From positions 9,547 to 73,546 of the forward strand of contig MHBK01000061.1 in NCBI GenBank assembly GCA_001804865.1: DNA of 64,000 bases, read 5' to 3'. Below the pieces are notes generated by a model. The model saw only the letters and a list, made by a program, of their open reading frames with translations, searched no databases and was not told the origin of the DNA. Shown here one piece after another: positions 5,295-34,115 of the stretch (positions within the stretch are counted from its first letter, which is position 1; each line of letters begins with the position of its first letter). Origin of the DNA: Lentisphaerae bacterium GWF2_57_35 (GTDB taxonomy: Bacteria > Verrucomicrobiota > Kiritimatiellia > CAIQIC01 > GWF2-57-35). The position numbers and the translations under genes are program-made.

Positions 5295-6497
5295 TTATCG
5301 TCCGGCCAGAAATCGCGTGAAGCGTTCGCCCAGCATCGACTCGATGGCCGGTTCGATTTGCCAATATCGCTTTAAATCCAGATATTCTTTCACTGCGCCG
5401 TCGTCGCCCGGCGGCAAACCCCGCTCCGCGCGGATCATCAAATTTTTCGGAGTTGCGTCGGGCGCGACAAATTCCATCGCCTGAACGCGGTAGCCCATGA
5501 TCCGCAAGACCAGCGTGCGCAAGGTATCGGTCAGGAGGTCGGCCAGCCTTTCGCGGAGGATGCCGTGCCGCAGCAGCGGCGCAAACAGCGGGGCCGAGAG
5601 CTGCCGATGCAATTCGTGCTGGCAACAGGGCGCCGCAACGATGCCGCGGCTGTTCCATAGAATGCCGCGGGCGATCGCCTCGTCGGTGGCCGTGTCGCAG
5701 GCGTGCAGGCTGAGCACCAGGTCCGGCTCCGCGCGCGGCTGGTAGTCGGCAATGGCCGCCGCTTCGAACGCGAGATCGCTCCACCCCAGCCGGTCGCGCA
5801 ATGCCTGGCACTTGGCGATGACATCCGATTTAAGATCGACGCCCTCCACCCGCGCGGGCAGGCCGCGCAGGTGATGCAGATAGTGATACAACGAAAACGT
5901 CAGCCACGCGCTGCCGCAGCCGCAATCGACCAGGAACAGGCTCCGATCGGTTTGATCGGCAAACAACGGCGCCAGCAACTCGATGAAGCCGTTCACCTGC
6001 CGGAATTTATTCCGCATGGAGGGCAGGACCTGGCCTTTTTCGTTCTGGATGCCGATGGCCTGGAGAAAAACATTGGGCCGGCCTTCTTCCAGCGCGTAGC
6101 GCCGGACCCGGTCGTGCGTCATGGCCGCCGGCTCGGTCCCCGGGCGCGACGGCGCCGAACGGCTCATCAGAACTTTGCCTTTCCGGGTGATGCGAATGTG
6201 CACATCCCCGGTTTGCTGCTGCAAGTGGAGGCGGGAAAAGGGCAGCGCCAGCGTTTTCTGCAGGCAGGCGCGCAGCTCCCGGGCCTCCAGATTCGCGACG
6301 GCGTTTTGCGTGGGCTTTTCGTAAAGCGCCTGGATGCGCCGGTCGTTGCGGATCATGACGGGACGAAAGCTGATCTTGGTGCAGTCCGTCCTCGTTGTGT
6401 CCGTCGGACCGCTCAGCGTCAGCCGCAGAAACCCGGGATCTTTCTCGACCGCCTGGACGATCAGCTCCTTGTAATCTGCCGTGTCATTCCGATTCAT
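5295..6497 (-). CDS. Class I SAM-dependent methyltransferase (Methyltransf_32-like)
   Basis: Motif I LFLVDCGCGSAWLTFSLYHYL, acidic motif II and a downstream ...SLHACDTATDEAI motif typical of this MTase clade. 400 aa. Confidence 0.65.
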   Translation of the reverse strand: MNRNDTADYKELIVQAVEKDPGFLRLTLSGPTDTTRTDCTKISFRPVMIRNDRRIQALYEKPTQNAVANLEARELRACLQKTLALPFSRLHLQQQTGDVHIRITRKGKVLMSRSAPSRPGTEPAAMTHDRVRRYALEEGRPNVFLQAIGIQNEKGQVLPSMRNKFRQVNGFIELLAPLFADQTDRSLFLVDCGCGSAWLTFSLYHYLHHLRGLPARVEGVDLKSDVIAKCQALRDRLGWSDLAFEAAAIADYQPRAEPDLVLSLHACDTATDEAIARGILWNSRGIVAAPCCQHELHRQLSAPLFAPLLRHGILRERLADLLTDTLRTLVLRIMGYRVQAMEFVAPDATPKNLMIRAERGLPPGDDGAVKEYLDLKRYWQIEPAIESMLGERFTRFLAGR

Positions 6498-6707
6498 GCC
6501 GCCACTTTACATAATCCAACGCGTAAACCTAATCTTATCTGAACGGAGGGCGGACATTCCTGTCCGCCATTCTTTGCCTTGATGCCCGACCATATGCCCC
6601 AAGAGACTGAAAAGATTGGCCCCACGGATGAAGAAAGAGACCGCTCCGGCCATGCGAAATTAAGCTCCCTTTACAAGTCGAAACCCCTTGCGAAGATCCT
6701 CATCCGT

Positions 6708-6735
6708 ATGATCACACTTTGCAAAGTGTGATCAT
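6708..6735. promoter_or_regulatory. 28-bp perfect palindrome ATGATCACACTTTGCAAAGTGTGATCAT; candidate transcription-factor operator (TCACA...TGTGA half-sites)
   Basis: Perfectly self-complementary 28-mer in the 400-bp intergenic region between the divergent methyltransferase (ends 6497) and lipoprotein (starts 6916) genes. Confidence 0.4.
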
Positions 6736-6787
6736 GGGAGTTTGGCGTTGGCGGTGGGGGAAAATAGGTCCAAATCCCGCGAATCGG

Positions 6788-6813
6788 TGGGACCGCTTTG
6801 CCATCCGTGGGCC
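6788..6813. repeat. REP family A core copy
   Basis: GTGGGACCGCTTTGCCATCCGTGGGCC. A degenerate partner lies at ~6618..6650 (GGCCCCACGGATGAAGAAAGAGACCGCT). Confidence 0.6.
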
Positions 6814-6915
6814 ATTCCTCTTTCAAGATGGCTCGCAAACGATCTCCATTTCTTCGAGCTTGTCTTAAGATTCTTGATTGCCTAATCTTCCGGCCATTAA
6901 ATAAAGGAATACACT

Positions 6916-7593
6916 ATGAATTGGACAAAATGGGCTGTTGTGGGTTGCTTGATGGGCGTGCTGTCTTTTCTTCAGGTCGGGTGTGCCACCAATCGGGGCA
7001 TTATCGATGTTCGAGTCGTTCAGCCTCAGAATCCCGCCAATTCACAAGCGGTAAAAATCGTCACGGTCCGCGATTTAAGAGTTTTTGAGCTCAAGCCTGC
7101 GAGCGCATCCATTCCTTCGTTGAAAAACGGCGAGATTAACGATGCAAGCATTACCCATAGAGCCATTGCACGAAAACGCAATGGTTATGGCAAGGCCATG
7201 GGCGACATCCTGCTGCCGGAAGGGCAGACGGTCGAAGGCTTGACGCGCGACGCATTGGCGCGGGCTTTTAAGGAAAAAGGCTATACGGTGCTCGACGCTC
7301 AGGACGCCGGCTATGACCAGGCCGAAGCCGTCGAAGCGGATATCGAACAATTCTGGGCTTGGGTCACGCCGGGCTTCTGGGCGGCCTCCCTTGAATTTGA
7401 AGCCCTCGTGAAGGTTAAAAATCCGACGATTTTTCTTACGCCCGAAGAAGCCGTTCGAGGTTCAGTCTTGCTGCACACGCAAGCGGCCGGAACCAGCGCC
7501 TGGATGAATATCCTCAACAAAGGGCTCGAAGACTTCATTCAAAAAGCGCAGGAAAAGATGAAAGAACCGAAGACCCTTTCTTCCGCCCAATGA
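6916..7593 (+). CDS. Putative lipoprotein (YajG-like); first gene of the locus A operon
   Basis: Signal peptide with lipobox (MNWTKWAVVGCLMGVLSFLQVGC). AAAGGA RBS. 225 aa. Confidence 0.55.
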   Translation: MNWTKWAVVGCLMGVLSFLQVGCATNRGIIDVRVVQPQNPANSQAVKIVTVRDLRVFELKPASASIPSLKNGEINDASITHRAIARKRNGYGKAMGDILLPEGQTVEGLTRDALARAFKEKGYTVLDAQDAGYDQAEAVEADIEQFWAWVTPGFWAASLEFEALVKVKNPTIFLTPEEAVRGSVLLHTQAAGTSAWMNILNKGLEDFIQKAQEKMKEPKTLSSAQ

Positions 7594-7630
7594 GGGATGG
7601 CTCTTCTCAAATGGCCGGCACGATAGTTGT

Positions 7631-8014
7631 ATGCATATTCGTACAGAAATAAAACAGCATATGCGTTCGTTGGATCGTGCCGGCGGTTCTCCTTCGGCCG
7701 ATTTTGTGTTTCCCGGCGCTTTTACGGGTTTCTCGGGGCATTTTCCCGGCCAGCCGGTTTTGCCGGGGGTGTGTTTTATCGAGGCGGCGGTCGCGCTGTT
7801 GGAGGCCTGGCACGGGCGCGAGGCGACGGTGCGGCAGGTCTCCAACGCCAAGTTCAGCCGCATGGTTTTGCCGGATCAGCCGGTCGCGCTCCGTTGCGTG
7901 AAATTCACGAACGACGATCACGGGGGCCGCGCGGCGATCGTGTGCGAACACGATGGCGCCAAGGCGGCGGAATTTGTCCTGGATTACGATCTCGTTCGAG
8001 ATGTGAAATCATGA
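7631..8014 (+). CDS. FabA/FabZ-like hotdog 3-hydroxyacyl-ACP dehydratase (ApeI/ApeP-like)
   Basis: FSGHFPGQPVLPGVCFIEAAVALLEA matches the FabZ HxxxGxxxxP hotdog motif (GHFPxxPVxPGV). Confidence 0.7.
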   Translation: MHIRTEIKQHMRSLDRAGGSPSADFVFPGAFTGFSGHFPGQPVLPGVCFIEAAVALLEAWHGREATVRQVSNAKFSRMVLPDQPVALRCVKFTNDDHGGRAAIVCEHDGAKAAEFVLDYDLVRDVKS

Positions 8015-8496
8015 CGCTATCCCGAAAGAAATTTATTTTTGTTTCGTCGCCGTCGGACCCGCCCCCGATCGTCTGCGAGATTCGCCGCCGCATCTTGTTC
8101 CACGAAGTGGATGTCATGGCGGTCGTCTGGTTCGGCAACTACTGCAAGCTGATCGACGAGGCGGCCTCGCGCCTGAGCCATGTCACGGGCTTGACCTTCG
8201 ACGAGTTCAAACGCGCCGGCATTATGGCGCCGGTGAAGCACATGAACATCGATTACAAGCTCCCCCTGACGATGGGCGAGGAGGTCAGGGTCCGCGCCGC
8301 CATGATCTGGAGCGATGCGCTGCGAATCAACATCGAGTTTACGATGATCAAGGAGGACGGGCGTACGGCCGCCGTCGCCCACATGATCCAACTGTTGATG
8401 GATGCGCATTCGCAGTTGCCCATTTTTGTCGAGCCGCCGTTGTTCGAGGCGTTTCGCGGGCGCTGGCGACGGGGAGAAATTGAGTCGCTTTCATGA
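8011..8496 (+). CDS. 4HBT/YbgC-type acyl-CoA/acyl-ACP thioesterase (ApeK-like)
   Basis: RILFHEVDVMAVVWFGNYCKLIDEAASR is the characteristic hotdog thioesterase N-terminal motif. ATG overlaps the upstream stop (ATGA). Confidence 0.7.
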   Translation: MTLSRKKFIFVSSPSDPPPIVCEIRRRILFHEVDVMAVVWFGNYCKLIDEAASRLSHVTGLTFDEFKRAGIMAPVKHMNIDYKLPLTMGEEVRVRAAMIWSDALRINIEFTMIKEDGRTAAVAHMIQLLMDAHSQLPIFVEPPLFEAFRGRWRRGEIESLS

Positions 8497-10307
8497 ACGT
8501 CGTAGTGGCCGATTACGACATCTTCACAGCGTACGGACACGGCGTCGAATGCTGCTGGAAGGGGTTGATCTCCGGGAAAACGGCGGTCTCCGAAACGGAG
8601 CGCCTGAAGAATCGAAAACCCGGATCTTGGTTTGCGGCGACGAGCGACGAATTGTCGTACGCACACGACGCCTCCCTGGCGGCGCAGATGCTGGAACGCT
8701 TGCTGCCGCCGCTGCACGGACGCCTCCCGCCCGATACGCTCGTGCTGCTGGCCACGACCGCCGGCGAGATCGATCTTCTGGAAAAAAGTTTGCTTAAAGA
8801 AAAGCCGTCCAGGCCTCAGGCGCCCGCGAGTCTTCTGGACGCCGTTACCCGCTGGGTTGGGCTCGAACGCCCGGGACACCTGATCTCGTGCGCCTGCGCC
8901 TCGTCGTCCATGGCGATGACCCTGGCCGCCCATTTAATCTCCCTCGGCCGTGAATCCAGCGTTTTGGTGGCGGCCTGCGACGCGGTGACGGAATTTGTGA
9001 TGGCCGGCTTTGGAACCATGTCGGCCCTTGCGCCTTCGCCGGCGAGACCCTTTCATAAGGACCGCGACGGTTTGAATCTGGGCGATGGCGCCGGCTGGTT
9101 ATGGCTGCTTCGCGAGGATTTCGCTCAAGAACATGCGATCAAGGCAAAAGCCTATCTGACCGGATGGAGCGCGCAGGGCGATTATTACCACATGACGGCG
9201 CCGGACCCCGAGGGGTGCGGACTCAGCCGTGCAATGGATCTCTCTTTGGACATGGCGGGATTGCGTCCGACCCAGGTGGATGCGATTTGCGCGCATGGCA
9301 CGGGAACGCGATATAACGACGACATGGAAATGCACGCCTTCGAACGCGTGCTGGGCCGGCATGCGTGCCCGGTATTTTCGGTCAAAGGCGGCATCGGACA
9401 CACGCTGGGCGCCGCGGGTCTCGTCGAAGCCGCCCTGGCCATCGAGTCGTTGCGTCGCCAACAGGTTCCGCCCAGCATCGGAGCCGATGAGGTGGAGCCT
9501 TTGGGCGGAGGACGGATTTCCAGCAAGGGCCATGATTTATCCAACCCGCGCATCGCCCTGTCCACCAATTCCGGATTTGGAGGAGTCAATACCTCTCTGG
9601 TGGTCGAGCTGCAACGCCCCCAAGAAGTCTCGCCGACCAAAGAGGCCCAGGCCCATTTGATCGCCATGAGCTGGGCCGACGACGAGCAGTGCGGGTTCGT
9701 TCGTCCGGGCTGCGAACCGATGGCGATCTCTCGCGCGCAGGAAAAAGACGGCTCGTTGCTGGCCCGGCCATATAAGAATTGGGGGCGGCTCAGTCCTCTG
9801 TCGAAAAAAATGGTCCACGCCCTGGCGCTGGCCCTGAAAGAAATGGACACGCCTTACAAAATGGGCGGGCCGATTCCGTGGGGGATCGTTAGCGTCAATA
9901 CCTCGGGATGCCAGGCTGACAACGAACGGTATTTCAAGGATTACGCGGAGGCCGGTCGCACCCTAGCCCGCGGGTCGTTGTTTGTCTATACGCTGCCCAC
10001 CAGCCCGATTGCCGAGGCGGCCCTGCATTTTCGCCTGGCCGGTCCGTTGTTTCATGTCGTGCAAGCGCAAGAGGATTACTCGCTCATCCTGAATTGGGCG
10101 GAGAGTTTCTTTGCGGGCGGCGACGCAGAAGGTATGATCGTGGTTTCGACGGAGCAGCCCCGCGTGGTCTGCGGTTTTTTGACGCGAGAAGGGGACGGGA
10201 GGGGCCGCGGTCTCGCGGACCTTGTTCATGGGCCTTTCGCCGCGCGAGAGGCGCCCTTGAATTCCGGAAACGATCGGTTGGAAGCATACTTAAAGCAGTC
10301 TTTATAA
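8493..10307 (+). CDS. Beta-ketoacyl-ACP synthase fused to a C-terminal KS-like domain lacking a catalytic Cys (KS-CLF fusion)
   Basis: N-terminal ~385 aa carry the Cys-His-His triad in canonical motifs (ISCACASS, ICAHGTGT, GIGHTLGAAG). The C-terminal ~215 aa (...IPWGIVSVNTSGCQADNERYF...LPTSPIAEAALHFRLAGPLFHV...) resemble the thiolase-fold CLF-like protein at 39072..39998. ATGA overlap with the thioesterase gene. Confidence 0.75.
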   Translation: MNVVVADYDIFTAYGHGVECCWKGLISGKTAVSETERLKNRKPGSWFAATSDELSYAHDASLAAQMLERLLPPLHGRLPPDTLVLLATTAGEIDLLEKSLLKEKPSRPQAPASLLDAVTRWVGLERPGHLISCACASSSMAMTLAAHLISLGRESSVLVAACDAVTEFVMAGFGTMSALAPSPARPFHKDRDGLNLGDGAGWLWLLREDFAQEHAIKAKAYLTGWSAQGDYYHMTAPDPEGCGLSRAMDLSLDMAGLRPTQVDAICAHGTGTRYNDDMEMHAFERVLGRHACPVFSVKGGIGHTLGAAGLVEAALAIESLRRQQVPPSIGADEVEPLGGGRISSKGHDLSNPRIALSTNSGFGGVNTSLVVELQRPQEVSPTKEAQAHLIAMSWADDEQCGFVRPGCEPMAISRAQEKDGSLLARPYKNWGRLSPLSKKMVHALALALKEMDTPYKMGGPIPWGIVSVNTSGCQADNERYFKDYAEAGRTLARGSLFVYTLPTSPIAEAALHFRLAGPLFHVVQAQEDYSLILNWAESFFAGGDAEGMIVVSTEQPRVVCGFLTREGDGRGRGLADLVHGPFAAREAPLNSGNDRLEAYLKQSL

Positions 10308-10319
10308 AGAGATTCATTT

Positions 10320-11567
10320 GTGAAAATTAAACTCGTCTATCCGCGGTGGCCCAAATTGCCCAATCAACCGGAATTTCATCTGCCGCCGCACGGCCCCGTA
10401 GTTTTTGCCGCGGCGATTCCGCGCGAGCATGAGATTTCGTTTTGCGACGAGCATGTGCAAACGCTGGACTTTGCAGAGTCGGCGGATTTGATTTGCATCT
10501 CCTGCATGCTGACCTGTCAGACGGCCCGGGCCTGGGAGATTGCGGACGCGTATCGGGCGCTGGGGAAGAAGGTGGTCCTTGGCGGCATCGCCACGATGCT
10601 CCACGCGGAGGAAAGCGCGCAGCACGCCGATGCGGTCTTCATCGGCGAAGCGGAGGGTCACTTCGAAAAAGTGTTGGCCGATTTCGAACGGGGCGAGTTG
10701 AAAAAGACCTATAATTTCTTTGGCCAGTGGCCGGACCTGCGCGATGTAGGCCCGGCGCGGCGGGACATTTTAAACCGCGAGGCCTACAACTACCGCGGCG
10801 TGCAAATGGTGGATCTGGTCCATTGCTCCCGCGGCTGCCGCTTCGATTGCTTTCCCTGCTGCGTGGCGTATCTCGGCGGGCAGAAGTTTCGGCCGCGGCC
10901 GTTCGAGCGCGTCATCGAGGAGTTGGAGTCGATCCCGAACAACCGCTTGTTCATTGTAGACAATTCGCTCGCGCAGGACGACGACTGGGAGCGGGAACTT
11001 TTCCGGGCGATCGCGCCGCTGAAGAAAAAATGGGTGTCGCATCCCATCCGCGACAAGGACGATATCCTCGATCTGGCGGCCGAGGCGGGCTGCTGGTATG
11101 TGTATCAGTCCGTCATCGACACCAGCGACTTCATGCGTACGCGCATCAAGAGATATCACGATCGGGGCATCGGCGTGGAGGGCACCATCATTCTCGGCTT
11201 GGACGATCACGACGAAGACTACATCAAGCGCCTGGTCGATTTCCTGCTGGAGTGCCGGCTCGACCTGGCCGAGTTCACGGTCGTGACGCCGTTTCCGCAC
11301 ACGCCCATTCGCGCCAAGATGGAGCGGGAAGGCCGCATCTTGCACAACGACTGGAAGCGTTATACAGCCGGCGAAACCGTCTTTAAACCCGCAAAGATGA
11401 GCGTCGACAAGTTGAACGAAATGTACCAGTACGCGTGGGATACTTTTTATCGCGACGAGCCCAAGGAAATCAAGATGGGCAAGCTGTACCGCCGCGTGCT
11501 GGAAAAGGAAATGGCGGACGGCACGTTCCGGTCCCATCGGGCCACGGGTGGCAAATGGGGCCATTGA
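10320..11567 (+). CDS. B12-binding-domain radical SAM enzyme (class B rSAM)
   Basis: N-terminal Rossmann-like cobalamin-binding region (KIKLVYPRW...DLICISCMLT), then the radical SAM Cx3Cx2C motif (CRFDCFPC). GTG start per the track. Confidence 0.75.
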   Translation: MKIKLVYPRWPKLPNQPEFHLPPHGPVVFAAAIPREHEISFCDEHVQTLDFAESADLICISCMLTCQTARAWEIADAYRALGKKVVLGGIATMLHAEESAQHADAVFIGEAEGHFEKVLADFERGELKKTYNFFGQWPDLRDVGPARRDILNREAYNYRGVQMVDLVHCSRGCRFDCFPCCVAYLGGQKFRPRPFERVIEELESIPNNRLFIVDNSLAQDDDWERELFRAIAPLKKKWVSHPIRDKDDILDLAAEAGCWYVYQSVIDTSDFMRTRIKRYHDRGIGVEGTIILGLDDHDEDYIKRLVDFLLECRLDLAEFTVVTPFPHTPIRAKMEREGRILHNDWKRYTAGETVFKPAKMSVDKLNEMYQYAWDTFYRDEPKEIKMGKLYRRVLEKEMADGTFRSHRATGGKWGH

Positions 11568-11589
11568 CCGTCATGCGGCGGAGCAGGAC

Positions 11590-12957
11590 ATGAAGATCGT
11601 CCTGATTTCAGCCAATCAAACGACGTCGCCCTATCCCGTGTTTCCTCTGGGCGCCTCGGTCGTATCCGCCGCCCTGAAAGCGGCCGGACACGAGGTGCTC
11701 TTCCTCGATGGACTGGCCGATGGAGTCTCGCAGGAAGCGGGTCTGGCGCGCCTGCGCGGACACGATCCCCGGCTGGTTTGCCTTTCGCTTCGCAACATCG
11801 ACAACACCAGCAGCGCCCATGAGGAATGCTATCTGGATGCCGTCGCCGCGCTGGTGGCCGGCGTGCGGACGGTCACACAAGCGCCGATCCTGGTGGGCGG
11901 CGCCGGCTTCTCGTTGATGCCTGAGGCCATCCTGAAACGCCTGGGCGCGGACTACGGCATCGCCGGCGAGGGGGAACGGGCGGTTCTGGAGTTTGTCGCG
12001 CGCCTGGAACGGGGGGAATTTCCGCCTACTTCGATCGTCAGGCCTGCGGCGTTTCTGGCCGAACCGGATATCGGCGCCGCCGATTACGGATTGCCCTGCG
12101 TCGATTATTACGTGGAGCAGGGCGGGGGCATGGTAGGCGTGCAAACCAAGCGCGGTTGTCCGCACGCTTGCGGCTATTGTTCGTATCCGGTCCTTGAAGG
12201 CCGCGCCTTGCGCGCGCGCGATCCCAAAGCCGTGGTGCAGGACATCGAACGTCTGATCGGCGAGCGGGGCATGAAATATTTGTATTTTGTCGATGCCGTC
12301 TTCAACGACTCGCAGGGCCTCTATCGGCAGGTCGTCGAGGAAATGCTGGCCCGCCGCATTCGCATTCCCTGGGTTGCCTTTTTCAAACCGACGCCCATCC
12401 CCGACGATGTCCTGGCCATGATGAAGGCCACCGGCTGGGCGGCCGCGGAAGTCGGTTCGGACGGTACGACCGATGAAACCCTGCGCGGGTTGCACAAGCC
12501 CTTTGCCTGGGCAGACGTGGAGGCCTTTCAAGCGGCCTTGAATCGGCATCGGGTGCCCGTCGCGCATTATTTCATCTTCGGCGGCCCCGGCGAGACGCGG
12601 GCGACCGTGCAGGCCGGCATCGACCATGTCCTGCGCTTGTCCTCCGCCGTACGGTTCGTCTATACCGGCATCCGCGTGCTGCCGGAAACGGATATCGAAC
12701 AAATCGCCCGGCGGGAGGGCTTGCTCGCGCCGGGGCAGTCGCTCTTGGAGCCGGTCTATTATTTCTCGCCGCAGATCGAGCGGGGTTGGCTGGAAAATCT
12801 CCTTCGCGAAAAGCTATCGCCCGATCCGCTGTGCTTTTATCCGCCCGAAAACTTTGCCCTCCGGATTGCCGAGTTTCATCGAAAAGGTTTTATGGGGCCG
12901 TTGTGGGAAATGGCGCTGGGGCATCGACCGCCTCGGAGGATTCGATCCCGTGGATAA
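11590..12957 (+). CDS. B12-binding-domain radical SAM enzyme (second, tandem paralog)
   Basis: MKIVLISANQ... B12-binding fold, then RGCPHACGYCSYP (Cx3Cx2C). GGAG RBS 8 nt before ATG 11590. The track ORF starts at an upstream GTG 11548 overlapping the previous gene. Confidence 0.75.
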   Translation: MKIVLISANQTTSPYPVFPLGASVVSAALKAAGHEVLFLDGLADGVSQEAGLARLRGHDPRLVCLSLRNIDNTSSAHEECYLDAVAALVAGVRTVTQAPILVGGAGFSLMPEAILKRLGADYGIAGEGERAVLEFVARLERGEFPPTSIVRPAAFLAEPDIGAADYGLPCVDYYVEQGGGMVGVQTKRGCPHACGYCSYPVLEGRALRARDPKAVVQDIERLIGERGMKYLYFVDAVFNDSQGLYRQVVEEMLARRIRIPWVAFFKPTPIPDDVLAMMKATGWAAAEVGSDGTTDETLRGLHKPFAWADVEAFQAALNRHRVPVAHYFIFGGPGETRATVQAGIDHVLRLSSAVRFVYTGIRVLPETDIEQIARREGLLAPGQSLLEPVYYFSPQIERGWLENLLREKLSPDPLCFYPPENFALRIAEFHRKGFMGPLWEMALGHRPPRRIRSRG

Positions 12958-13849
12958 CAGTCTTCTAAAAAAACGCGGAAACAATCTGGGCTTCTGGTTT
13001 TTCAAGGCCGCCCTCGATCTCTTTGGGCTGCGCGGCGCTTATGTCCTGCTGGGTTTTGTGGCGGGATACTACTGGCTGTTCGACCGCACCGCGCGACGGA
13101 GCGCGCGCGCCTATTTGCAGCGGCGCTTCCGCGGCCGGTCGGGCTGGGCCGCCCAGCGCGACATCTACCGCCTGTTCTACAGCCAGGGCGTTTCGCTCAT
13201 TGACCGTTACGTCATGGCCATGAAGCCCTCCCTGTTTTCCCTCGGCATTGTGAATTACGAAGCAATCCGCCCGCTCGTGGAAGATCCCCGCCAGGGCTTC
13301 ATCCTGCTGACCTCGCACGTGGGCAACTGGCAGGCCGTGATGCTGGCCCTGGGACGCATGAACCGGCGCGTAAATTTATTGATGCGCACCGAGGAAAACG
13401 AGGCGGTGAATCAATACTTGCGCATTCAGGAAGCCGGCGGGCTCATCGATATCGTCTCGCCGGATTTGCCCTTGGGCGGAGTGCTGGAGTTGACCCAGCG
13501 CATCCAGCGCGCCGAAATCGTCGCCATCATGGGCGACCGGGCTTATACCTCCGACACCGCCGAAATCGTTTTCCTGGGCGACCAAGCCGGCTTTCCGCGC
13601 GGCGCTTTTCATCTGGCCTCGGCCTGGGACTGCCCGGTCGTGGTGATGTTTACCGCCAAAACAGGCCCCTCCGCCTACGACGTCGAAATTGCCGGCGTCA
13701 TCCATCCCGGTCAAACTCCCGGCACCGTCAAGCGCGAGCGCATTTCCCATATGGCGCAGCAGTACGCCGACCTGCTTTCCGCCTATGCCGAGCGACATCC
13801 GTATCAGTTCTATCTTTTTCACGACGTCTGGACTCGCCCGGGCGGATAG
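12950..13849 (+). CDS. LpxL/HtrB-family lipid acyltransferase (LPLAT; ApeJ-like)
   Basis: N-terminal hydrophobic segment, then ILLTSHVGNWQ (HX4D-like acyltransferase motif region) and ...IMGDRAYTSD...VFLGD. GTG start overlapping the upstream stop (GTGGATAA). Start uncertain. Confidence 0.6.
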   Translation: MDNSLLKKRGNNLGFWFFKAALDLFGLRGAYVLLGFVAGYYWLFDRTARRSARAYLQRRFRGRSGWAAQRDIYRLFYSQGVSLIDRYVMAMKPSLFSLGIVNYEAIRPLVEDPRQGFILLTSHVGNWQAVMLALGRMNRRVNLLMRTEENEAVNQYLRIQEAGGLIDIVSPDLPLGGVLELTQRIQRAEIVAIMGDRAYTSDTAEIVFLGDQAGFPRGAFHLASAWDCPVVVMFTAKTGPSAYDVEIAGVIHPGQTPGTVKRERISHMAQQYADLLSAYAERHPYQFYLFHDVWTRPGG

Positions 13850-13869
13850 TTTTGCAGCTTTGAGAGAGA

Positions 13870-13879
13870 GGGGGGGGGG
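13870..13879. repeat. Homopolymeric G10 tract preceded by (GA)4
   Basis: TGAGAGAGAG-GGGGGGGGG-A lies 21 nt downstream of the acyltransferase stop. Confidence 0.8.
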
Positions 13880-13902
13880 AGCTCCAACGCAAGTCCCGCT
13901 TG

Positions 13903-14109
13903 GCCCTTCGACAAGCGCAGGCCAGGCGCATGGGGCAAAACGGGGGCGCGCCATCTTGGTTCATTGGCGGCGTTGGCGCAGGCCGGGCGGACAAAAGTCC
14001 TGCCCGGCCTGCGCCGCCTTGCCACTGAACCAAGCTGACGCGCCCCCGTTTTGGGGCCGATCGGAATCGGCCCGGCCCCATGCGCCTGGCCTGGCTTGTC
14101 GAAGGGCCA
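13903..14109. repeat. ~207-bp long near-perfect inverted repeat (nested arms A/B/C around a GGGCGGACAAAAGTCCTGCCC centre); candidate structured RNA or MITE-like element
   Basis: Arm A 13903-13937 versus 14076-14109 (one indel). Arm B AAAACGGGGGCGCG versus CGCGCCCCCGTTTT (perfect). Arm C ~13951-13988 versus 14006-14039 (imperfect). An additional hairpin CCCCATGcCAGTaaACTGgaCATGGGG lies at 14122-14148. Confidence 0.65.
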
Positions 14110-14176
14110 AGCGACAGCCACCCCATGCCAGTAAACTGGACATGGGGTTCCATTGCGGTAGTTGTTTTCTGTGGAG

Positions 14177-14204
14177 CCGGGGCGACTCGCCCCGGTCTTT
14201 TCTG
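14177..14204 (+). terminator. Rho-independent terminator ending the locus A operon (CCGGGGCG-ACT-CGCCCCGG + TCTTTTCT)
   Basis: Perfect 8-bp GC stem, 3-nt loop, U-rich tail on the + strand. Confidence 0.55.
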
Positions 14205-14253
14205 TCGGAACCTTTTTCTTTCGTAGCCGCCGGCGTAAGCCGGTGGCCTTTCA

Positions 14254-14469
14254 TTAGCCTTGCGCTGACAAGACGTTGCCCAGCAGGCGGCGGTATTCCT
14301 GCACCCATTTTCCGGCCAACACCTTCTTGCCAATCAGATAAAAAGCGTTTCCCAATTCATCCGAGCTTTCCAGCAAAGCCCGCGAATCGTTCAGGGCCAA
14401 CCCTTGGGCGTATTGAGTCTGTTTGGCGTCAATGAAGTCGTCGATGTTCACGATGTCTTGCAAGGTCAT
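14254..14469 (-). CDS. Hypothetical small protein (71 aa)
   Basis: ORF with genome-typical codon usage. No recognisable family. Confidence 0.3.
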   Translation of the reverse strand: MTLQDIVNIDDFIDAKQTQYAQGLALNDSRALLESSDELGNAFYLIGKKVLAGKWVQEYRRLLGNVLSAQG

Positions 14470-14694
14470 AGGTACAGCCTTTGTTGGGTTTCACGCCCGC
14501 GGAGGCGCACTGCGCTTCTCTGGCTGTTCCCAAGCAGGGTAGGCGCCAGTCCTCGTACCTCCAAGGAACCGACGAAAGACGCTTCATCAAGAAAGGTATT
14601 GCCTGCTGCAAAGAAACCTAGTATGCATCTAGCATAAATTTCAAAAAATGAAAAATCAGGAAGTGTTGAACGCATGAAAAGGAGGATGGGTTTG

Positions 14695-17600
14695 ATGAAA
14701 TGGTGCACTAGAGTTGTGATGGGCCTCCTATTTCTGGCGGCGGGAACCCGGCTGGTCGCGGATATTCATTATGTATCGCCGTCCGGGGACAACATTTCGC
14801 CGTATACGAGTTGGGCGACGGCCGCCCGGCTGGTGTCCAATGCCGTCTCCGTTGCCGGCGCGGGCGACACGGTGTTGGTCAGCAATGGGCTCTATTTCGT
14901 CTCCTCCGAAATCCTGCTGAAACAAGACGTTACTTTGCAGAGCGTCCAGGGTCCCGCCGCCACGATCCTGGATGGCAGCAACAAATGCCGGGTGGTTCGC
15001 ATGGCGGCGTCCAACGCCGTTTTGGATGGGTTTACCATTCAGCATGGGTTCGTCAATAACGGCGGGGGGGGCGGAGTTTGTCTCGAAGGAACCGGGGTGG
15101 TTCAAAACTGCGTCATTCGCGAAAACAAGGCTTCATCGGGTTATTATGCCGTAGGCGGGGGCGGGGTCTACTGCAACCGGGGCGGTACGGTCCGTTACTG
15201 CGAGATCCGGGATAACGAGGGCGCCTCCAGCGGCGGAGGGGTTCACTGCTACCTGGGCGGTCTGGTGCAGAATTGCGCGATAATTGGCAACGCCACGACG
15301 CTTTACGGTTCCGACGGCGGCGGCATCTATTTTGCACAAGGGGGCCGCGCGGAGAATTGCACGATCGGGGGAAACACGGCCTATGGCAGCGGAGATGGCA
15401 TCTACTGTTATGTGCAGGGCACGCTGGAAAACTGCATTATTTATCACAATGGCGACGAGAACTGGACGCCGGGGTGGAGCAACCGCATGACCTACTGCTG
15501 TACGACGCCCGCGGTGGGCGGCGCCGGCAATTTTACGAACGACCCGCGATGTCTGGCGCCGGTAGACGGTAATTTCCGGTTGTGCATGGACTCGCCGTGC
15601 CGGGATGCCGGCCTCCAGCGGCCGGAGTATCTCACGGCCCTGGATCTGGACGGCCGGCCCCGCGTGGCGGGGGCGGGCGTGGATCTGGGCGCCTACGAGG
15701 CCGGCCCGCTCCAGGCCGATTTTTCGGCCACTCGGCGGGTGGGGTTGGTTCCCTTGGATGTCGTCTATATGGCGGCGGTCTCGGCCACGAACGTGGACGG
15801 CCTCTGGTATGCCTGGGATCTCGACGGCGACTCGACCGTGGATATGGTCGGCTATGGTCTGGCCTGTGTGACCACGACCTATGAAACCATCGGCTGGCAT
15901 TCGGCCGCGCTGACGGTCGCCAATGCCGCCGGGGAAACCTCCCGCAGCGTAAAGCCGGCGTACTACGTGCAGGCCGGACCGACGGATGTTTACGTGGCGA
16001 CGAATGGCGGTGCGGCGTGGCCCTACGCCGACTGGAGCATGGCGGCGCGTTCGCTCCAGGCGGCGGTGGATGCCGGTGTAACCGGCACGCGGGTTTGGGT
16101 GTCGAATGGGCTGTACGTGCTGAACCAGCCTCTGACCCTTGCTCATGGCATTTATGTGAGCAGCATGAATGGCTTGGAAAGCACAACCCTCACGGGAACG
16201 GGCGGGGTGCGTTGCCTGTACTTGAATCATCCGCAGGCGGCGGTCGATGGGTTCACCATCACGAACGGCTATTCCGCTATGGGCTCGGGCGCCTATTTCG
16301 CGGAAGGCGGAGGCTCCGTGCGCCGTTGCCGGTTGGCCGGAAATCGCTCCTATGGATACGACGGCGGCGGGGCGGTCTATTTTGCGGCCGCCGGGCTGGT
16401 CGAAGATTGCGAGATCGTGGGCAATCGAGCGGAGTACCGGGGCGGGGGCGTAGCCTTCGTTAACGGCGGGATGGTCGATCGGTGCGTGATTTATGGAAAT
16501 CGAAGCTCCCAAGGCGGCGGCATCTATCTTTCCCAAGGAGGCTTGCTGCGAAATTCGCTGGTCTATGGCAATGCGGCTTCCTATGGAGGCGGAGCGTCCT
16601 CTTACAGCGGCGGTTTGATCGAGAATTCAACTCTTTGCCGCAATAGCGCCTCCGTGGTCGGAGGTGGGATTCAGGGGAACTGGGGCGGGATGCTGAGAAA
16701 CTCCATCGTATATTACAACGCGGCGCCGGAAGACGCCAATTGGTCGACGGAGGACAGTGGCCTGAGCTTCACCAATTGCTGCACCTTTCCGACCGCGGAC
16801 GGAGACGGCAACCAAGCCGGACCGCCGGGATTCCTCGATGAAGAGGAGTTCAATTTTGCCCTGATGCCGGACTCGCCTTGCCGCAACGCCGGCCGATACG
16901 AAACTTGGATGGAGGGGGCGACGGATGTGCGCGGTCAGGCGCGAGCGACAGAGAGTGCGGTGGATATGGGCGCCATGGAAACCGGCCCTTTGCAGGTGGA
17001 TATACGCGGCATGAACCTCACGGGACCCGCACCGCTGGCCGCCTGCTTCCAAACGGTTTGCTCGGGGACGAATACGACCATTGTGCGCTACGATTGGGAC
17101 CTGGACGGCGACGGCGTCATGGACTGGAGCGGGGCGGACGGTTCTGTGACGACAAATATTTTTACGACGGCCGGGCATTACGGGGTCATTTGCCAGGCGG
17201 TCAACTCCGCCGGCGAGACCGCGCGAGTCGCGAAGGCTTCCGGTTATGTGAAGGTGGGACCGGCTGCCGCCTACGTGGCCGCGTCGGGGGCGCACGAATA
17301 TCCCTACGACACCTGGGCCAAGGCGGCCACCAACATTCAGGCGGCCATTGGTGTCGGAACCTATGGAACGGTCGTCTGGGTCGCCAATGGAACCTATGTT
17401 TCCGGCGCGCGTCTGGCCGTTACCAATCACGTGACGCTGAAAAGCGTGAATGGGGCGGGTTGCACGATCGTTCAAGGCGAGGGCATGGACTCCTGCGTCT
17501 ACATGGACCAGGCGGAGGCTACGGTAGAGGGCTTCACGATCCAGGGCGGGTCTGGCAACGGCGGCGGCGTGCATATCCAGAGCGGCGGCCGTGTGCGGTA

Positions 17601-20600
17601 CTGCCGGGTGACCGGCAACGAGGCCTACTACGGCGCGGGGATCTACTGTGTGGCGTCCGCGGTGGTGGAGCGTTGTGAGGTTGACGGCAACAAGGCTGCG
17701 CAGGATGGCGGGGGCATCTATACCGAGTGGGGCCATAACCAAATACTGGATTGCGTGATCCGGAACAACGAGGCCGGCTCCTGCGGCGGCGGAGTGTATG
17801 CGGACGAGGGAACCCTTCTGCGCAATTGCGTGCTCGCTCGAAATCGCGGCGGTTATGGCGGCGGCGGATACGTGAAGGATGACGTGCAGGTGGATTCCTG
17901 CACCGTGACGGACAATCAAGGTTCCTACAAAGGCGGCGGCCTTTATTGGGATTCCAAGGTGGAGATTCAGAACTCCATTCTCTATTTCAACCGGTGCGAT
18001 TCCTCGAACGGCGGCTCCAACTATTTTTGCAATAGCTGCCAGTGGGACGGATTGGAATATATTCATATCGCCAACACCTGCCTGGCGCCGGCCCTGGCCG
18101 GCGACGGGAACACCGATGCGGATCCTTTGTTTCTGGATGTGGAAAACGAGGCGTATTCCTTGCAGCCGGGATCTCCTTGCGTCAATGCGGGCGTCCATGA
18201 GGCCTGGATGGTCGGGGGCTATGACATCGAGGGCTACGATCGCGTGATTCAAGGCGCGGTGGACATGGGCGCTTATGAATTTGGTCCTCTGCGCTGCTCG
18301 TTTCGGGCTGACCTCCGCGAGGGGACGGCGCCGATGGCGGTCGTCTTCACGTCCTTCGTTGCCGGAACCAACCTGGCCGGCCTGTACTACAAGTGGGATT
18401 TCAATGGCGATGGCGTGGCGGACCAGGAAGGCTATGGGCTGCAAGAAGTCACCAACCGTTACAACGACTTCGGCACGTTTGCGCCGAGACTCGTCGTGGC
18501 GGGCGCGGACGCCGAGACCCAGTCCTGCGAACTGCCCGGGGCCGGCATTCGTGTCGCTCCGGCCGCTTTGTATGTCGATCCCTCCGGCGCGGCCATTTAT
18601 CCCTACACCAACTGGAGCATGGCGGCGCGCGATATCCAGACGGCGGTGGATCAGAGCGCGCGGGGTTCGTGCGTGTGGGTCTCGAATGGGGTGTATACGC
18701 TGTCGGCGAGCGTGACGATCCCTCGCGCCATGACGGTTCGCAGCCTGAACGGCGCCGAGGCCGCGACGATTCATGGCAACGACGCCGTCCAGTGCGTTTC
18801 CCTGCTCGCCACCGGGGCCACGATCAGCGGATTTACCCTCACGGGTGGGCGGGGCCATTTGGGCGGCGGCGTTTACTGCGGGCGCGGCGCCGTGGTGGAT
18901 CGGTGCCGGGCGATGAGCAACCGCGCCTATCATGCGAGCTCCACGCTCGTATGGGGCGGCGGCGTGTATTGCGAAGGCGGCACGGTGCGCTATTCCGCCA
19001 TCGAAGACAACCGTACGGCCGAGGAAGGGTATGGCGGGGGCGGTTACATAACGAGCAGCGGTTTGGTGGAGCACTGCACGATCCTGCGCAATGAGGGCGG
19101 TTATGGCGGCGGCCTGTATGTAACCGAAGGGTCGGTGGTCCGAAATTCGATCGTGGCCGGAAATCTGGCGCTTAACTCCGACTACAACGAATCGGGCGGG
19201 GGCGGCGTCTATTGTTCGACGGAAAGCGCGATCGAGAATTGCACCATTGTAAATAACCGGGCGAATCGCTCCGGCGCAGGCGTCCTGCTCTACTACAATG
19301 GATACGTTCATAACAGCATCATCTGGTCCAATCAGGGTGCTAATGTCTACATCTTCGGCGGCATGGGATATGTGGACCATACTTGTAGCACCCCGCTGCC
19401 GGCAGGGAATGGAAATATCGCCGCGGACCCGCTGTTCGCCGATCTGGAAACCCTCGATGTCCGACTGCAACCCGGTTCGCCGTGCATCAACGTGGGAACC
19501 AACCAGGCCTGGATGGCGAAGGATACGGATTATCAGGGCTACGACCGGATCATCAACGGGCGCGTAGATCTGGGCGTCTACGAATTCTCGCCGGCCAACA
19601 CCGTGCGCGTGTCTGGTCACACGCCGGCCGGCAACGCGTTGCCGCCGTTGGGCTCGTTGCTGATTCATTTTCAATACGAAATGGACCCCGCCTCGTTTTC
19701 GATCGCGGAGGACATCCTCCGGTTCGAGGGTCCCTCCGGCGCTATCTCGGCAACCCAGGCCGCGTGGCTGTCGAGCCGTACCCTGCAGTTGACGTTTCCG
19801 ACCCAGACGGAATTGGGAAGCTACGAGCTGGTCCTGGGATCGCAAATGTCCGACCGCGAGGGCCGGGGTTTGGATCAGGACGGCGACGGCGTGCCCGGAG
19901 AAAGCCCGGACGACGAATACCTGGCCGCTTTCCGTTTCCCTGCTTTCTGGGTTATGAGCCATGAACCGAATGGCGAACGCACGGAAGCGGTGGACTCCCT
20001 GCGCATCCGTTTCAGTCAACCGGTTCAGCCGGGCGACTGCACCGCCGCCGATGTGACGCTGAACGGTCCGCTGGGATCCATTCCCATCGCCAACGACCCC
20101 CTCCGCGTGAGCAACGATCTTTATGAAGTTGCCTTTCCCCGGCAGGTCGCGGGCGGAACGTATGCGCTGACGGTCGGCCCGGAGATTTGGAGCGCCGACG
20201 GCGAATTGCTGGATCAGGATGGGGACGGCATGCCGGGTGAACCGGAACACGACCGGTACGAAGGATGCTTTACCATCGTGGACAATGCAGGTCCGCGGAT
20301 TGTCAGCGTCCTGCCGGCGTATGCCCGTGCCGCCGTCAGCAACCTGGTGATTCGATTCAGCGAGCCCATGTCGCCGGAACACTTCACCACAGAGGACCTG
20401 ACCCTGTCCGGTCCGGATGACTACATCGTCCTGGAGCAGATAACGGCGATCGCGCCGGACGAATTCCAGGTTTCGTTCCCCGCCGCAACGGACGCCGGAA
20501 CCTATTCGTTTTCCATCGGCCCGGATGTGCGCGATGTGGCGGGCAATATGATGGATCAGGACCAGGATGGACAAAAAGGCGAAGACTACGACGATGTTTA

Positions 20601-30882: not shown

Positions 30883-30903
30883 GGGGCTGCGGTTCTCTTT
30901 TCA

Positions 30904-30925
30904 GGAGCCGCTCCGAAGCGGCTCC
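30904..30925 (+). terminator. Stem-loop (GGAGCCGCT-ccga-AGCGGCTCC) 22 nt after the giant gene stop; possible terminator without a clear U-tract
   Basis: Perfect 9-bp stem. No T-run follows, so assignment as a terminator is tentative. Confidence 0.3.
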
Positions 30926-30977
30926 GTCGATTCGGGGTGCATCTCGACACGGCCGCAGATTGTATGGGGAAAAGAAA

Positions 30978-33944: not shown

Positions 33945-34001
33945 TTACCGCTCACTAAAATGCAAGCAGGATTTGCCTCTGACGAAATCCGGGAAAACAA
34001 G

Positions 34002-34067: not shown

Positions 34068-34115
34068 GATGTTCAATTTGTCGCGGGAGAGGGGATAGGA
34101 ACGCAGATATTACGA

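Follow-up and report, generated by a model that had tools for sequence, protein, structure and literature searches.

In aryl polyene (APE) systems, FabG and ApeI/ApeP-type dehydratases suffice for polyene formation, and the heads of canonical APEs are methylated by ordinary SAM methyltransferases. Neither canonical APE nor flexirubin clusters are known to contain radical SAM genes. In 2009, Rattray et al. noticed 'ladderane-like' clusters for fatty-acid synthesis in Kuenenia, Desulfotalea and Geobacter (PMC2649909), and 'ladderane' BGCs are routinely reported outside anammox bacteria, in many phyla (PMC9902471); papers from antiSMASH surveys mention such BGCs without analysis. That radical SAM enzymes help to form ladderanes, polyunsaturated fatty acids or hydrocarbons is only a hypothesis (PMC2649909, PMC13459092), and attempts to express the Kuenenia enzymes were unsuccessful (PMC4790861).

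Here we analyze a window of 64,000 nucleotides from Lentisphaerae bacterium GWF2_57_35, in which an earlier note had placed three cobalamin-binding radical SAM genes (here rSAM1, rSAM2 and rSAM3) among genes for lipid or pigment synthesis. Its statement that such genes lie outside canonical APE and flexirubin clusters agrees with the NCBIfam flexirubin models, none of which is a radical SAM model or matches the three proteins, and with our literature search, which found no paper tying flexirubin to radical SAM. The same search found nothing on TIGR04072 (NCBIfam "lipid biosynthesis B12-binding/radical SAM protein", model name 'rSAM_ladder_B12', curated cut-off 360 bits), by id or by descriptive name, and found DP1855 only in Rattray et al. 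2009.

Two radical SAM genes lie between a ketosynthase and an acyltransferase

The genes around rSAM1 and rSAM2 are as follows, with L001 and L002 denoting related loci used for comparison.

7631-8014, plus strand: ApeI/FabA-like dehydratase, 127 aa (FabA 31.3 bits, cut-off 23)
8011-8496, plus strand: 4HBT-type thioesterase (4HBT_2 61.2 bits; 33-34% identity to the L001/L002 thioesterases)
8493-10307, plus strand: ketosynthase (KS)-partner fusion, 604 aa (Pfam KS N and C domains)
10320-11567, plus strand: rSAM1, class-B-type radical SAM protein, 415 aa, GTG start
11590-12957, plus strand: rSAM2, TIGR04072 protein, 455 aa (ORF 11548-12957, true start ATG 11590)
12950-13849, plus strand: LpxL/HtrB-type acyltransferase (Lip_A_acyltrans 36.6 bits; 41% identity to the L002 gene)

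What can be read as a single 289-aa thioesterase ORF is actually two genes, the dehydratase and the thioesterase. The ApeI-like Pfam score of the dehydratase (22.3 bits) is below the cut-off, and in tblastn the protein matches the syntenic ApeI-like genes of L001 and L002. The Cys-His-His triad of the KS is intact (CACASS, HMTAP, AHGTGT), and the C-terminal ~230 aa of the fusion match separate ORFs of 221 and 234 aa in L002 and L001, respectively, at 34-44% identity; in most relatives the partner domain is a separate ORF in the CLF position. We place the start of rSAM2 at ATG 11590, which is preceded by GGAG at 11580-83, because this is where both the TIGR04072 alignment and every homolog start. 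For the acyltransferase, the true start codon is the GTG at 12950, giving an 8-nt overlap with the end of rSAM2. Upstream, ATGA overlaps join dehydratase to thioesterase (8011-8014) and thioesterase to KS (8493-8496). The translational coupling described in the earlier note is thus confirmed, as is its placement of two genes with B12 domains and CX3CX2C motifs between the KS-partner fusion and the LpxL-type acyltransferase.

Two terminator-like sites, each a hairpin plus T-run, follow the acyltransferase at 14176-14247. An ORF at 13689-14435 matches no family, has terminator-like hairpins inside it and is probably non-coding. For a lipoprotein-like ORF at 6916-7593, only a single weak syntenic match (locus L011) speaks for cluster membership. 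A scan of 6400-14800 for sigma-70-like promoters, uninformative for the host phylum, found no sites.

The cluster is split into three pieces within the window

Further cluster genes lie in a dialkylresorcinol module (33960-38933, plus strand, coordinates being ORF limits), in a displaced ACP-KS-CLF piece next to it (39072-41482) and in a third piece that ends with rSAM3.

33960-35261, plus strand: DarB (NF005293 StlD/DarB 501 bits, cut-off 450)
35093-35686, plus strand: DarG-family protein (ORF limits, start probably later; DarG_fam 112 bits, cut-off 70)
35683-36711, plus strand: DarH acyltransferase (DarH 413 bits, cut-off 300)
36708-37469, plus strand: ABC-2 ATPase (ABC domain)
37328-38668, plus strand: ABC-2 permease (ORF limits, start probably later; ABC domain)
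38664-38897, plus strand: homology to the ACP of the dialkylresorcinol module (tblastn)
39072-39998, minus strand: CLF-like protein of the displaced piece (Pfam; 38% identity to the L002 gene)
40007-41179, minus strand: KS of the displaced piece (Pfam; 51% identity to the L002 gene)
41210-41482, minus strand: ACP of the displaced piece (Pfam; 56% identity to the L002 gene)
47523-49007, minus strand: rSAM3, class-B radical SAM protein, 494 aa
49019-49648, minus strand: DUF3261 protein
49641-52037, minus strand: MMPL/RND exporter
52016-52762, minus strand: LolA-like protein
52759-54378, minus strand: aromatic amino-acid ammonia-lyase (FlxA 451 bits, equivalog cut-off 700)
54389-54796, minus strand: ApeP-like dehydratase (ApeP-like 21.0 bits, below the cut-off; syntenic with the ApeP-like genes of L001/L002)
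54801-56102, minus strand: FlxY-like aryl-acid ligase (FlxY 424 bits, equivalog cut-off 520; best hit)
56096-56845, minus strand: PlsC-type acyltransferase
about 56842-57114, minus strand: ACP of the third piece
57134-58399, minus strand: KS of the third piece
58427-59161, minus strand: FabG

DarB scores 419 bits on the narrower DarB 'exception' model, below its cut-off of 550, and generic histidine ammonia-lyase models slightly outscore FlxA on the lyase. rSAM3 is the last gene of the fabG...MMPL operon, on the minus strand, as the earlier note had it. In L002, the counterparts of the ACP-KS-CLF piece come after the acyltransferase, and the whole cluster is contiguous in L001, L002, L005, L007, L030 and others. 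The locus is a flexirubin-like, three-rSAM variant of the cluster (tyrosine/phenylalanine ammonia-lyase, here TAL, FlxY-like ligase, DarB/G/H) that rearrangement has split into three pieces within the window. The two operons named in the earlier note are not independent; each is a fragment of a single cluster, which most other genomes carry in contiguous form. By tblastn, the window lacks four genes of L001/L002, encoding a phytoene-desaturase-like protein, an FAD-oxidoreductase, a ~445-aa protein and a second AMP-ligase.

The gene order is conserved across phyla

The order dehydratase-thioesterase-KS-partner-rSAM1-rSAM2-(rSAM3)-acyltransferase-ACP-KS-CLF recurs at no fewer than 582 places, counted in a collection with one genome per species. 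The carriers, hundreds of species, belong to Lentisphaerota, Verrucomicrobiota, Omnitrophota, Nitrospirota, Desulfobacterota, Planctomycetota, Spirochaetota and Elusimicrobiota, mostly anaerobic lineages. Of 72 related loci, 62 have rSAM2 immediately after rSAM1, and in 54 of 63 a KS/partner immediately precedes rSAM1. Orthologs of rSAM3, at 53-68% identity, directly follow rSAM2 in 23 of 33 loci, and 36 of 38 loci of at least 5 kb contain other cluster genes. This order is far beyond chance. The analysis directly shows to which families these genes belong, that they are embedded in an operon with translational coupling and that their synteny with the genes for KS, partner, ACP and acyltransferase is almost universal. 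The radical SAM content differs among loci, which carry rSAM1 alone, rSAM1 and rSAM2, all three, rSAM1 and rSAM3 (L116) or rSAM2 and rSAM3 (L114); this variation suggests that the enzymes would perform separate, independent steps.

Homologs occurring apart from KS/ACP genes in related genomes had been named beforehand as evidence against the reading in the earlier note; the linkage found is near-universal. Its interpretation holds insofar as the three genes are genuine, operon-embedded parts of a KS/ACP lipid-pigment system. The arrangement is neither peculiar to this locus nor undescribed, as it recurs across the genome collection, includes an NCBI-named family, was noticed in 2009 (PMC2649909) and is found among 'ladderane' BGCs (PMC9902471). 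The cluster is a widespread, already catalogued type, of which the window adds only another, rearranged example.

The three proteins belong to distinct families

All three proteins exceed the PF02310 cut-off and have an N-terminal Rossmann-type cobalamin-binding domain, and their structure models superpose on TsrM, MgmA, CysS, TokK and OxsB. Judged by sequence, with a B12 domain plus CX3CX2C, each qualifies as a class B (cobalamin-dependent) radical SAM protein. Pairwise identity is only 24-26%, which assigns them to three distinct families at the sequence level and is at odds with their description as paralogs in the earlier note.

In rSAM1, the Pfam B12-binding domain (PF02310) scores 34.7 bits against a cut-off of 32.1, and Radical_SAM scores 27.6 bits, slightly below its cut-off of 29.5. 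The CX3CX2C motif, read directly, is CRFDCFPC (C173-x3-C177-x2-C180, nt 10836-10859); it is invariant among aligned homologs and followed at once by an invariant fourth Cys, and the alignment gives three extra invariant Cys in all (C66, C181 and C258). The protein belongs to an unnamed, very strongly conserved family and is by far the most constrained of the cluster, with orthologs across phyla at ~62-66% identity versus 26-44% for neighbor proteins; clustering the orthologs at 50% leaves essentially one full-length representative. Its TIGR04072 score is 41.9 bits, below the 360-bit cut-off. The nearest structural neighbor and closest solved relative is AprD4, a radical SAM 1,2-diol dehydratase without bound cobalamin (PMC12931638); identity to AprD4 and to MgmA, the MCR glutamine C-methylase, is 18-20%. 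Cobalamin use by rSAM1 is doubtful because the nearest fold binds none; in our motif comparison the S-x-M...G-G spacing typical of cobalamin domains is retained, and we regard the matter as uncertain. Relatives at 32-42% identity, unnamed class B enzymes of a generic BchE/HpnJ-like kind, gave no functional lead.

The second protein, rSAM2, is a full member of TIGR04072; its score of 530.2 bits, from an alignment to positions 1-440 of the 443-position model, exceeds the curated equivalog cut-off, and among the other NCBIfam models BzaD (170 bits, cut-off 450) and TsrM (136 bits) come next. Its Pfam scores are 61.6 bits for B12-binding (cut-off 32.1) and 46.1 bits for Radical_SAM, and its motif, CPHACGYC (C190-x3-C194-x2-C197, nt 12157-12180), is invariant among aligned homologs. 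The closest solved structure is TsrM, a tryptophan 2-C-methyltransferase (sequence profile 168.7 bits, E 1.5e-48; Foldseek TM 0.82). In the downstream cobalamin motif, Gly65-x-Thr67-x-Arg69 of TsrM aligns with (G/C)64-x-S66-x-R68 of rSAM2, where all 32 homologs keep R68 (nt 11791-11793), N69 and D71. Arg69 of TsrM lies beneath the corrin and favors polar methyl transfer (PMC9204698, PMC13331322), and BzaD, like TsrM, is believed to act on an sp2 carbon as a methylase (PMC12931638). The likeness of rSAM2 to TsrM and BzaD lies in this Gly-x-Ser/Thr-x-Arg motif, predicted to place the Arg under the corrin, whereas identity is only 21-22% and rSAM2 is ~120 aa shorter. In TsrM, the Glu of the 'GGE' motif occupies the position of SAM as ligand of the unique iron (PMC9204698). 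A Glu of this type is absent from rSAM2, in which D235-A236-V237 aligns with D271-S272-E273 of TsrM and the Val is near-invariant. Since this blocking Glu is missing, rSAM2 has probably retained SAM binding at its cluster, and for the same reason the TsrM mechanism is not simply transferable to it. Of the candidate chemistries in the earlier note (methylation, cyclization, C-C coupling), the sequence and modeled fold favor methylation, as a predicted activity, and for rSAM2 only.

For rSAM3, the Pfam scores are 71.8 bits (B12-binding) and 77.3 bits (Radical_SAM), and the motif is CPYECSYC (C217-x3-C221-x2-C224, nt 48336-48359). The best NCBIfam matches, HpnJ (172 bits, cut-off 578) and BchE (155 bits, cut-off 481), do not reach their equivalog cut-offs, nor does the TIGR04072 score of 106.2 bits reach 360. 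AprD4, the radical diol dehydratase, is again the closest solved relative.

A proposed role in tailoring an ACP-bound chain

On balance, we favor the view that the radical SAM genes form the conserved core of a widespread APE-related type II PKS/FAS lipid cluster and tailor an ACP-bound chain, with rSAM2 acting as a C-methylase. The KS/partner would build an ACP-bound aryl-polyene or acyl chain that the radical SAM enzymes modify first; the LpxL- and PlsC-type acyltransferases (and DarH) would next join it to a lipid or resorcinol anchor, and LolA, MMPL and DUF3261 would then carry the product to the outer membrane. In this reading rSAM2 would resemble TsrM and BzaD, as a cobalamin-dependent C-methyltransferase whose target is an sp2 carbon of the aryl head or the polyene, on a substrate that is presumably ACP-bound, whereas that of TsrM is a free amino acid. 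rSAM1 and rSAM3 would add further, separate radical steps. The function of class B enzymes is poorly predictable from similarity, which weighs against extending TsrM/BzaD activity to rSAM2. Since ordinary SAM methyltransferases act on canonical APE heads, a B12 enzyme is also not obviously required for head methylation.

An unlikely alternative is that at least one of the enzymes, most plausibly rSAM1, uses a 5'-deoxyadenosyl radical to cyclize the polyene or acyl chain on the ACP or to cross-link it, yielding a carbocyclic or branched lipid by chemistry mechanistically akin to the postulated ladderane route. Radical SAM-mediated cyclization or ligation has been proposed for ladderanes (PMC13459092, PMC10139942), the 'ladderane' type is assigned to such clusters across many non-anammox phyla (PMC9902471), and the model name of the rSAM2 family points the same way, as do the three extra Cys and the extreme constraint of rSAM1. 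However, Desulfotalea psychrophila, which has a related cluster, yielded no ladderanes (PMC2649909), the window has no Kuenenia-type phytoene-desaturase-like gene, and no anammox genus name (Kuenenia, Brocadia or Scalindua) appears among the 120 best homologs of an rSAM2 from a Brocadiia MAG. D. psychrophila combines a syntenic radical SAM cluster with unusual polyunsaturated hydrocarbons, and Rattray et al. considered an anaerobic polyunsaturated fatty acid/hydrocarbon route (PMC2649909). A radical dehydratase or desaturase, acting anaerobically on hydroxy-acyl or saturated acyl-ACP to make a conjugated or polyunsaturated chain, would suit the mostly anaerobic carriers and the AprD4 kinship of rSAM1 and rSAM3. 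We rate this reading as less probable still, because the cluster already has FabG and ApeI/ApeP-type dehydratases and rSAM2 groups with the methylases, not with AprD4.

That the three are cofactor or porphyrin enzymes and chance neighbors of lipid genes is effectively refuted. The earlier note had named best matches to such unrelated functions as grounds for refutation, and sub-threshold matches to BzaD, BchE and HpnJ do exist, yet all fall far below their curated cut-offs whereas TIGR04072, the best match of rSAM2, is exceeded; synteny with KS, ACP and acyltransferase genes across many phyla and the translational coupling in the window also speak against chance.

Returning to the favored tailoring role, we offer only as a speculative extension, held with low confidence, that rSAM1 is not a methylase and performs a new radical C-C bond-forming, cyclizing or rearranging step on the ACP-bound polyene. 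If so, hundreds of mostly anaerobic species would make unrecognized radical-tailored polyene outer-membrane lipids, by chemistry that bears directly on unsolved ladderane biosynthesis. More broadly, this type II PKS/FAS lipid cluster consistently includes a pair or trio of class B enzymes; solving rSAM1, rSAM2 and rSAM3 would define new tailoring chemistry for aryl-polyene/flexirubin-type lipids, would reveal the true products of 'ladderane' BGC calls outside anammox bacteria and might inform ladderane biosynthesis. Cultured carriers, namely Victivallis vadensis DSM 14823 (L030), Desulfosarcina sp. BuS5 and a Pontiellaceae isolate, open the cluster to experiment.

Comparison with known clusters

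The window resembles the E. coli ape cluster in its KS and short partner, ApeI/ApeP-type dehydratases, ACPs, FabG and thioesterase, and shares with canonical ape clusters the LpxL/PlsC-type acyltransferases and LolA/MMPL/DUF3261 export. With flexirubin clusters it has in common an FlxA-like lyase, an FlxY-like ligase, DarB, DarG and DarH; the three Dar proteins score above their family cut-offs, whereas FlxA and FlxY fall short of their equivalog cut-offs, and the host is a Lentisphaerae MAG and not one of the Bacteroidota. A link to classical anammox ladderane clusters is suggested only as far as the literature and the NCBIfam model name go. Kuenenia-type clusters (Kuste3335-3352, Kuste3603-3608) contain a phytoene-desaturase-like gene, whereas tblastn with the amine-oxidase/phytoene-desaturase-like protein of L002 found none in the window. 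The clusters of Rattray et al. 2009 have the same mix of additional FabF-type KS, whose partners are inactive, along with ACPs, FabG, an enzyme resembling phenylacetate-CoA ligase, a membrane protein of large size and radical SAM genes in tandem, whereas TAL, DarB/G/H and the third radical SAM gene are features of the window.

Two adjacent radical SAM genes in a ketosynthase/acyltransferase operon

ORFs, Pfam and NCBIfam matches and motifs confirmed the claim that two adjacent B12-binding/radical SAM genes, here rSAM1 and rSAM2, lie between a ketosynthase (KS)-partner fusion and an LpxL-type acyltransferase. Domain assignments below are from the ORF listing and Pfam/NCBIfam.

7631-8014, +, ApeI/FabA-like dehydratase (DH), first gene of the operon around rSAM1-rSAM2
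8011-8496, +, 4HBT thioesterase (TE), ATGA overlap with the DH gene
8493-10307, +, KS, ATGA overlap with the TE gene, Cys-His-His triad intact
10320-11567, +, rSAM1, 415 aa, GTG start, N-terminal B12-binding and radical SAM domains
11548-12957, +, rSAM2 ORF, real start ATG 11590, N-terminal B12-binding and radical SAM domains
from GTG 12950, +, LpxL-type acyltransferase, start overlapping the rSAM2 stop by 8 nt

The translational coupling proposed for the upstream genes also holds, through the ATGA overlaps at DH/TE and TE/KS, and the next spacers are 12 nt (KS to rSAM1) and 22 nt (rSAM1 to rSAM2). The C-terminal ~230 aa of the KS, the partner in the CLF position, form a stand-alone ORF of 221-234 aa in relatives. 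Entries from the MAG Lentisphaerae bacterium GWF2_57_35 match rSAM1 and rSAM2 at 100% identity. In alignment, the N-terminus of rSAM1, MKIKLVYPRWPKL, agrees with all homologs. The rSAM2 start at 11590 is preceded by GGAG ten bases 5′ and is also where the homologs and the match to TIGR04072 start. The CX3CX2C motif is read at nt 10836-10859 in rSAM1 and nt 12157-12180 in rSAM2. Judged from the sequence, the operon probably ends at two hairpin-plus-T-run sites at 14176-14247, 3′ of the acyltransferase gene. An ORF at 13689-14435 (+, 248 aa) was rejected as a gene and is probably non-coding, as it has no family match, overlaps the acyltransferase 3′ end and holds both terminator-like hairpins. 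Just 5′ of the DH gene, an ORF at 6916-7593 (+, 225 aa) combines a signal peptide with a lipobox-like VGC; it had no family match and one weak homolog, within the cluster of L011, a related locus from another genome.

The window holds fragments of one cluster

The third B12-type radical SAM gene, rSAM3, does close the FabG...MMPL fragment, as the earlier note had it.

33960-38933, +, dialkylresorcinol operon: DarB, DarG-family, DarH, ABC-2 exporter, ACP (Dar genes at 33960-36711)
41482-39072, -, ACP-KS-CLF, genes normally 3′ of the acyltransferase in relatives
59161-47523, -, upstream half: FabG, KS, ACP, PlsC, ligase, ApeP-like DH, ammonia-lyase (TAL), LolA, MMPL, DUF3261, then rSAM3
47523-49007, -, rSAM3, B12-binding and radical SAM architecture as in rSAM1 and rSAM2

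The description of the three proteins as paralogs was mistaken: because their pairwise identity is only 24-26%, they represent three families and no recent duplication. Nor are the two operons independent: the pieces are fragments of a single cluster that is usually contiguous at other loci. Between the fragments lie the gene for a 5,402-aa surface protein, the dialkylresorcinol operon and a small defence islet.

The 5,402-aa ORF (14674-30882, +) starts ~825 nt past the acyltransferase gene; its PKD, Big_5, eight CARDB, seven CarboxypepD_reg and DUF7619 domains suggest a giant adhesin-like or surface protein. Beside rSAM3, a stretch of low GC (0.46-0.51, against ~0.60 elsewhere) at 45480-47485 (+) encodes an AbiLi/AbiLii abortive-infection pair (PADLOC 277 and 83 bits). 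A PDC-S02/DUF1016 nuclease-like gene (42523-43746, -) lies ~1.7 kb away, across an unassigned stretch with ORFs on both strands. Taken together, the region is probably a defence islet that was inserted here. Two class I SAM methyltransferase genes flank the cluster fragments, Methyltransf_32 at 5295-6497 (-) and Methyltransf_23 at 30714-32264 (+); neither had homologs at the related loci examined.

By gene content, the dialkylresorcinol operon makes the cluster of this Lentisphaerae MAG flexirubin-like. In NCBIfam, DarB scored 501 bits with the StlD/DarB family (cut-off 450), the DarG-family protein 112 bits (cut-off 70) and DarH, a BtrH-related acyltransferase, 413 bits (cut-off 300). The ligase matched FlxY best, at 424 bits, under the cut-off of 520, and the lyase scored 451 bits against FlxA, under the cut-off of 700. 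DarG, DarH and ABC genes also lie 3′ of rSAM1-2-3 at six other loci (L061, L071, L085, L087, L126 and L146), and the three-rSAM Dar/TAL variant therefore recurs in other lineages. It is suggestive only that rSAM3 goes with this variant. A search of the literature found no paper linking flexirubins and radical SAM enzymes.

The cluster is widespread and rSAM1 is its most constrained protein

The database contains over 4,800 relatives of rSAM2, for which 45-50% identity is typical; many carry the name 'lipid biosynthesis B12-binding/radical SAM protein'. rSAM2 itself scores 530 bits on the NCBIfam equivalog TIGR04072 (rSAM_ladder_B12; cut-off 360). For rSAM1 there are over 6,500 relatives. The best 120 all have at least 68% identity and are spread over Omnitrophota, Nitrospirota, Desulfobacterota, Verrucomicrobiota, Kiritimatiellota, Spirochaetota and other phyla; the NCBIfam scan found no model covering or naming the family. 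When one genome per species was scanned, at least 582 places encoded an rSAM1 relative. Cultured carriers include Victivallis vadensis DSM 14823, Desulfosarcina sp. BuS5 and a Pontiellaceae isolate. We mapped the window proteins onto the 80 best of these loci and two contigs found by exact protein look-up. The recurrent order, usually contiguous, is (FabG...KS-ACP)-PlsC-AMP ligase-(x)-LolA-MMPL-(DUF3261)-DH-TE-KS-partner-rSAM1-rSAM2-(GT2/DUF2062)-LpxL acyltransferase-ACP-KS-CLF. Within this sample, rSAM2 is directly 3′ of rSAM1 in 62 of the 72 loci with enough flank, and KS/partner directly 5′ of rSAM1 in 54/63. The view of the radical SAM enzymes as tailoring enzymes of a KS/ACP system is thus partly supported: they are real and linked to it, and the methylation, cyclisation or C-C coupling suggested in the earlier note are candidate chemistries. 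The arrangement itself occurs elsewhere and has been described before.

Scanning metagenomes with rSAM3 gave orthologs (53-68% identity) at 77 loci, and other cluster genes were present at 36 of the 38 that span at least 5 kb. The usual order there is rSAM1-rSAM2-rSAM3-(x)-acyltransferase-ACP-KS-CLF, with rSAM2 directly 5′ of rSAM3 in 23/33 loci; by this linkage rSAM3 is part of the rSAM1/rSAM2 system. These loci were chosen independently of rSAM1, so that conservation can be compared without bias.

Median identity to the window proteins at rSAM3-selected loci
rSAM1: 62%
KS: 44%
rSAM2: 39%
acyltransferase: 35%
MMPL: 26%

Across phyla (related loci L003-L159), median identity is 62-66% for rSAM1 versus 26-44% for its cluster neighbours. 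Clustering of a library at 50% identity leaves the rSAM1 orthogroup with a single full-length representative at 63% and a second at 49%; below it there is a gap, then generic class B enzymes at ≤42%. By these measures, no other cluster protein is as constrained as rSAM1.

Loci carry rSAM1 alone, 1+2, 1+2+3, 1+3 or 2+3. Such variation favours separable tailoring steps over one obligate complex, and the three proteins appear to be separable modules. At L066, L068, L078 and L080-L082, rSAM1 occurs without rSAM2, often directly 3′ of FabG; genomes with rSAM1 but no rSAM2 are of Desulfobulbales, Leptospirales and Syntrophaceae type. L116 has rSAM1 and rSAM3, and L114 has rSAM2 and rSAM3. A fourth kind, Radical_SAM and SPASM fused to an ApeP-like dehydratase domain, lies directly 3′ of the AMP ligase in a Brocadiia MAG (L001, 639-2123), whereas the window has only a stand-alone ApeP-like gene (54389-54796).

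Functional leads

After TIGR04072, the named NCBIfam families that score highest for rSAM2 are BzaD, at 170 bits, and TsrM, the tryptophan 2-C-methyltransferase, at 136 bits. TsrM is also its closest solved structure by profile (168.7 bits, E 1.5e-48) and the closest fold to the rSAM2 model (pLDDT 87; Foldseek TM 0.82). In the HMMER alignment, TsrM Gly65-x-Thr67-x-Arg69 pairs with rSAM2 (G/C)64-x-S66-x-R68, and R68, N69 and D71 are invariant among 32 homologs. BzaD is believed to methylate an sp2 carbon, as TsrM does (PMC12931638). We propose that rSAM2 may be a cobalamin-dependent C-methyltransferase, with an sp2 carbon in the polyene or aryl head as its probable target. In TsrM, Glu273 takes the place of SAM as ligand of the unique iron (PMC9204698), whereas the aligned rSAM2 position is a near-invariant Val; ordinary SAM binding at the iron cluster is probably kept in rSAM2.

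The nearest structural neighbour of rSAM1, AprD4, binds no cobalamin (PMC12931638). In the homolog alignment, rSAM1 retains the S61-x-M63...G88-G89 spacing and an invariant His24, and has three extra invariant cysteines, C66, C181 and C258. rSAM3 resembles HpnJ, BchE and P-methylases, with all NCBIfam scores well under the cut-offs.

Comparison with known clusters

According to Rattray et al. 2009, Kuenenia, Desulfotalea psychrophila, Geobacter and Pelobacter have fatty-acid clusters that combine additional FabF paralogs and ACPs with phenylacetyl-CoA-ligase-like, new membrane, phytoene-desaturase-like and radical SAM proteins; in D. psychrophila, ladderanes were undetected and unusual polyunsaturated hydrocarbons present (PMC2649909). 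When Javidpour et al. 2016 expressed kuste3342 and kuste3343 in E. coli, the gene products were undetectable (PMC4790861). 'Ladderane' BGCs of unknown function are reported from many non-anammox phyla (PMC9902471), and a 2026 review lists no characterised radical SAM enzymes acting on ketoacyl lipids beyond Jaw5 and treats the ladderane enzymes as hypothetical. The cluster kind is therefore known and catalogued, its chemistry putative, and its possible tie to the Kuenenia enzymes comes from the literature and the NCBIfam model name. The window adds a rearranged, flexirubin-like, three-rSAM example of this kind.
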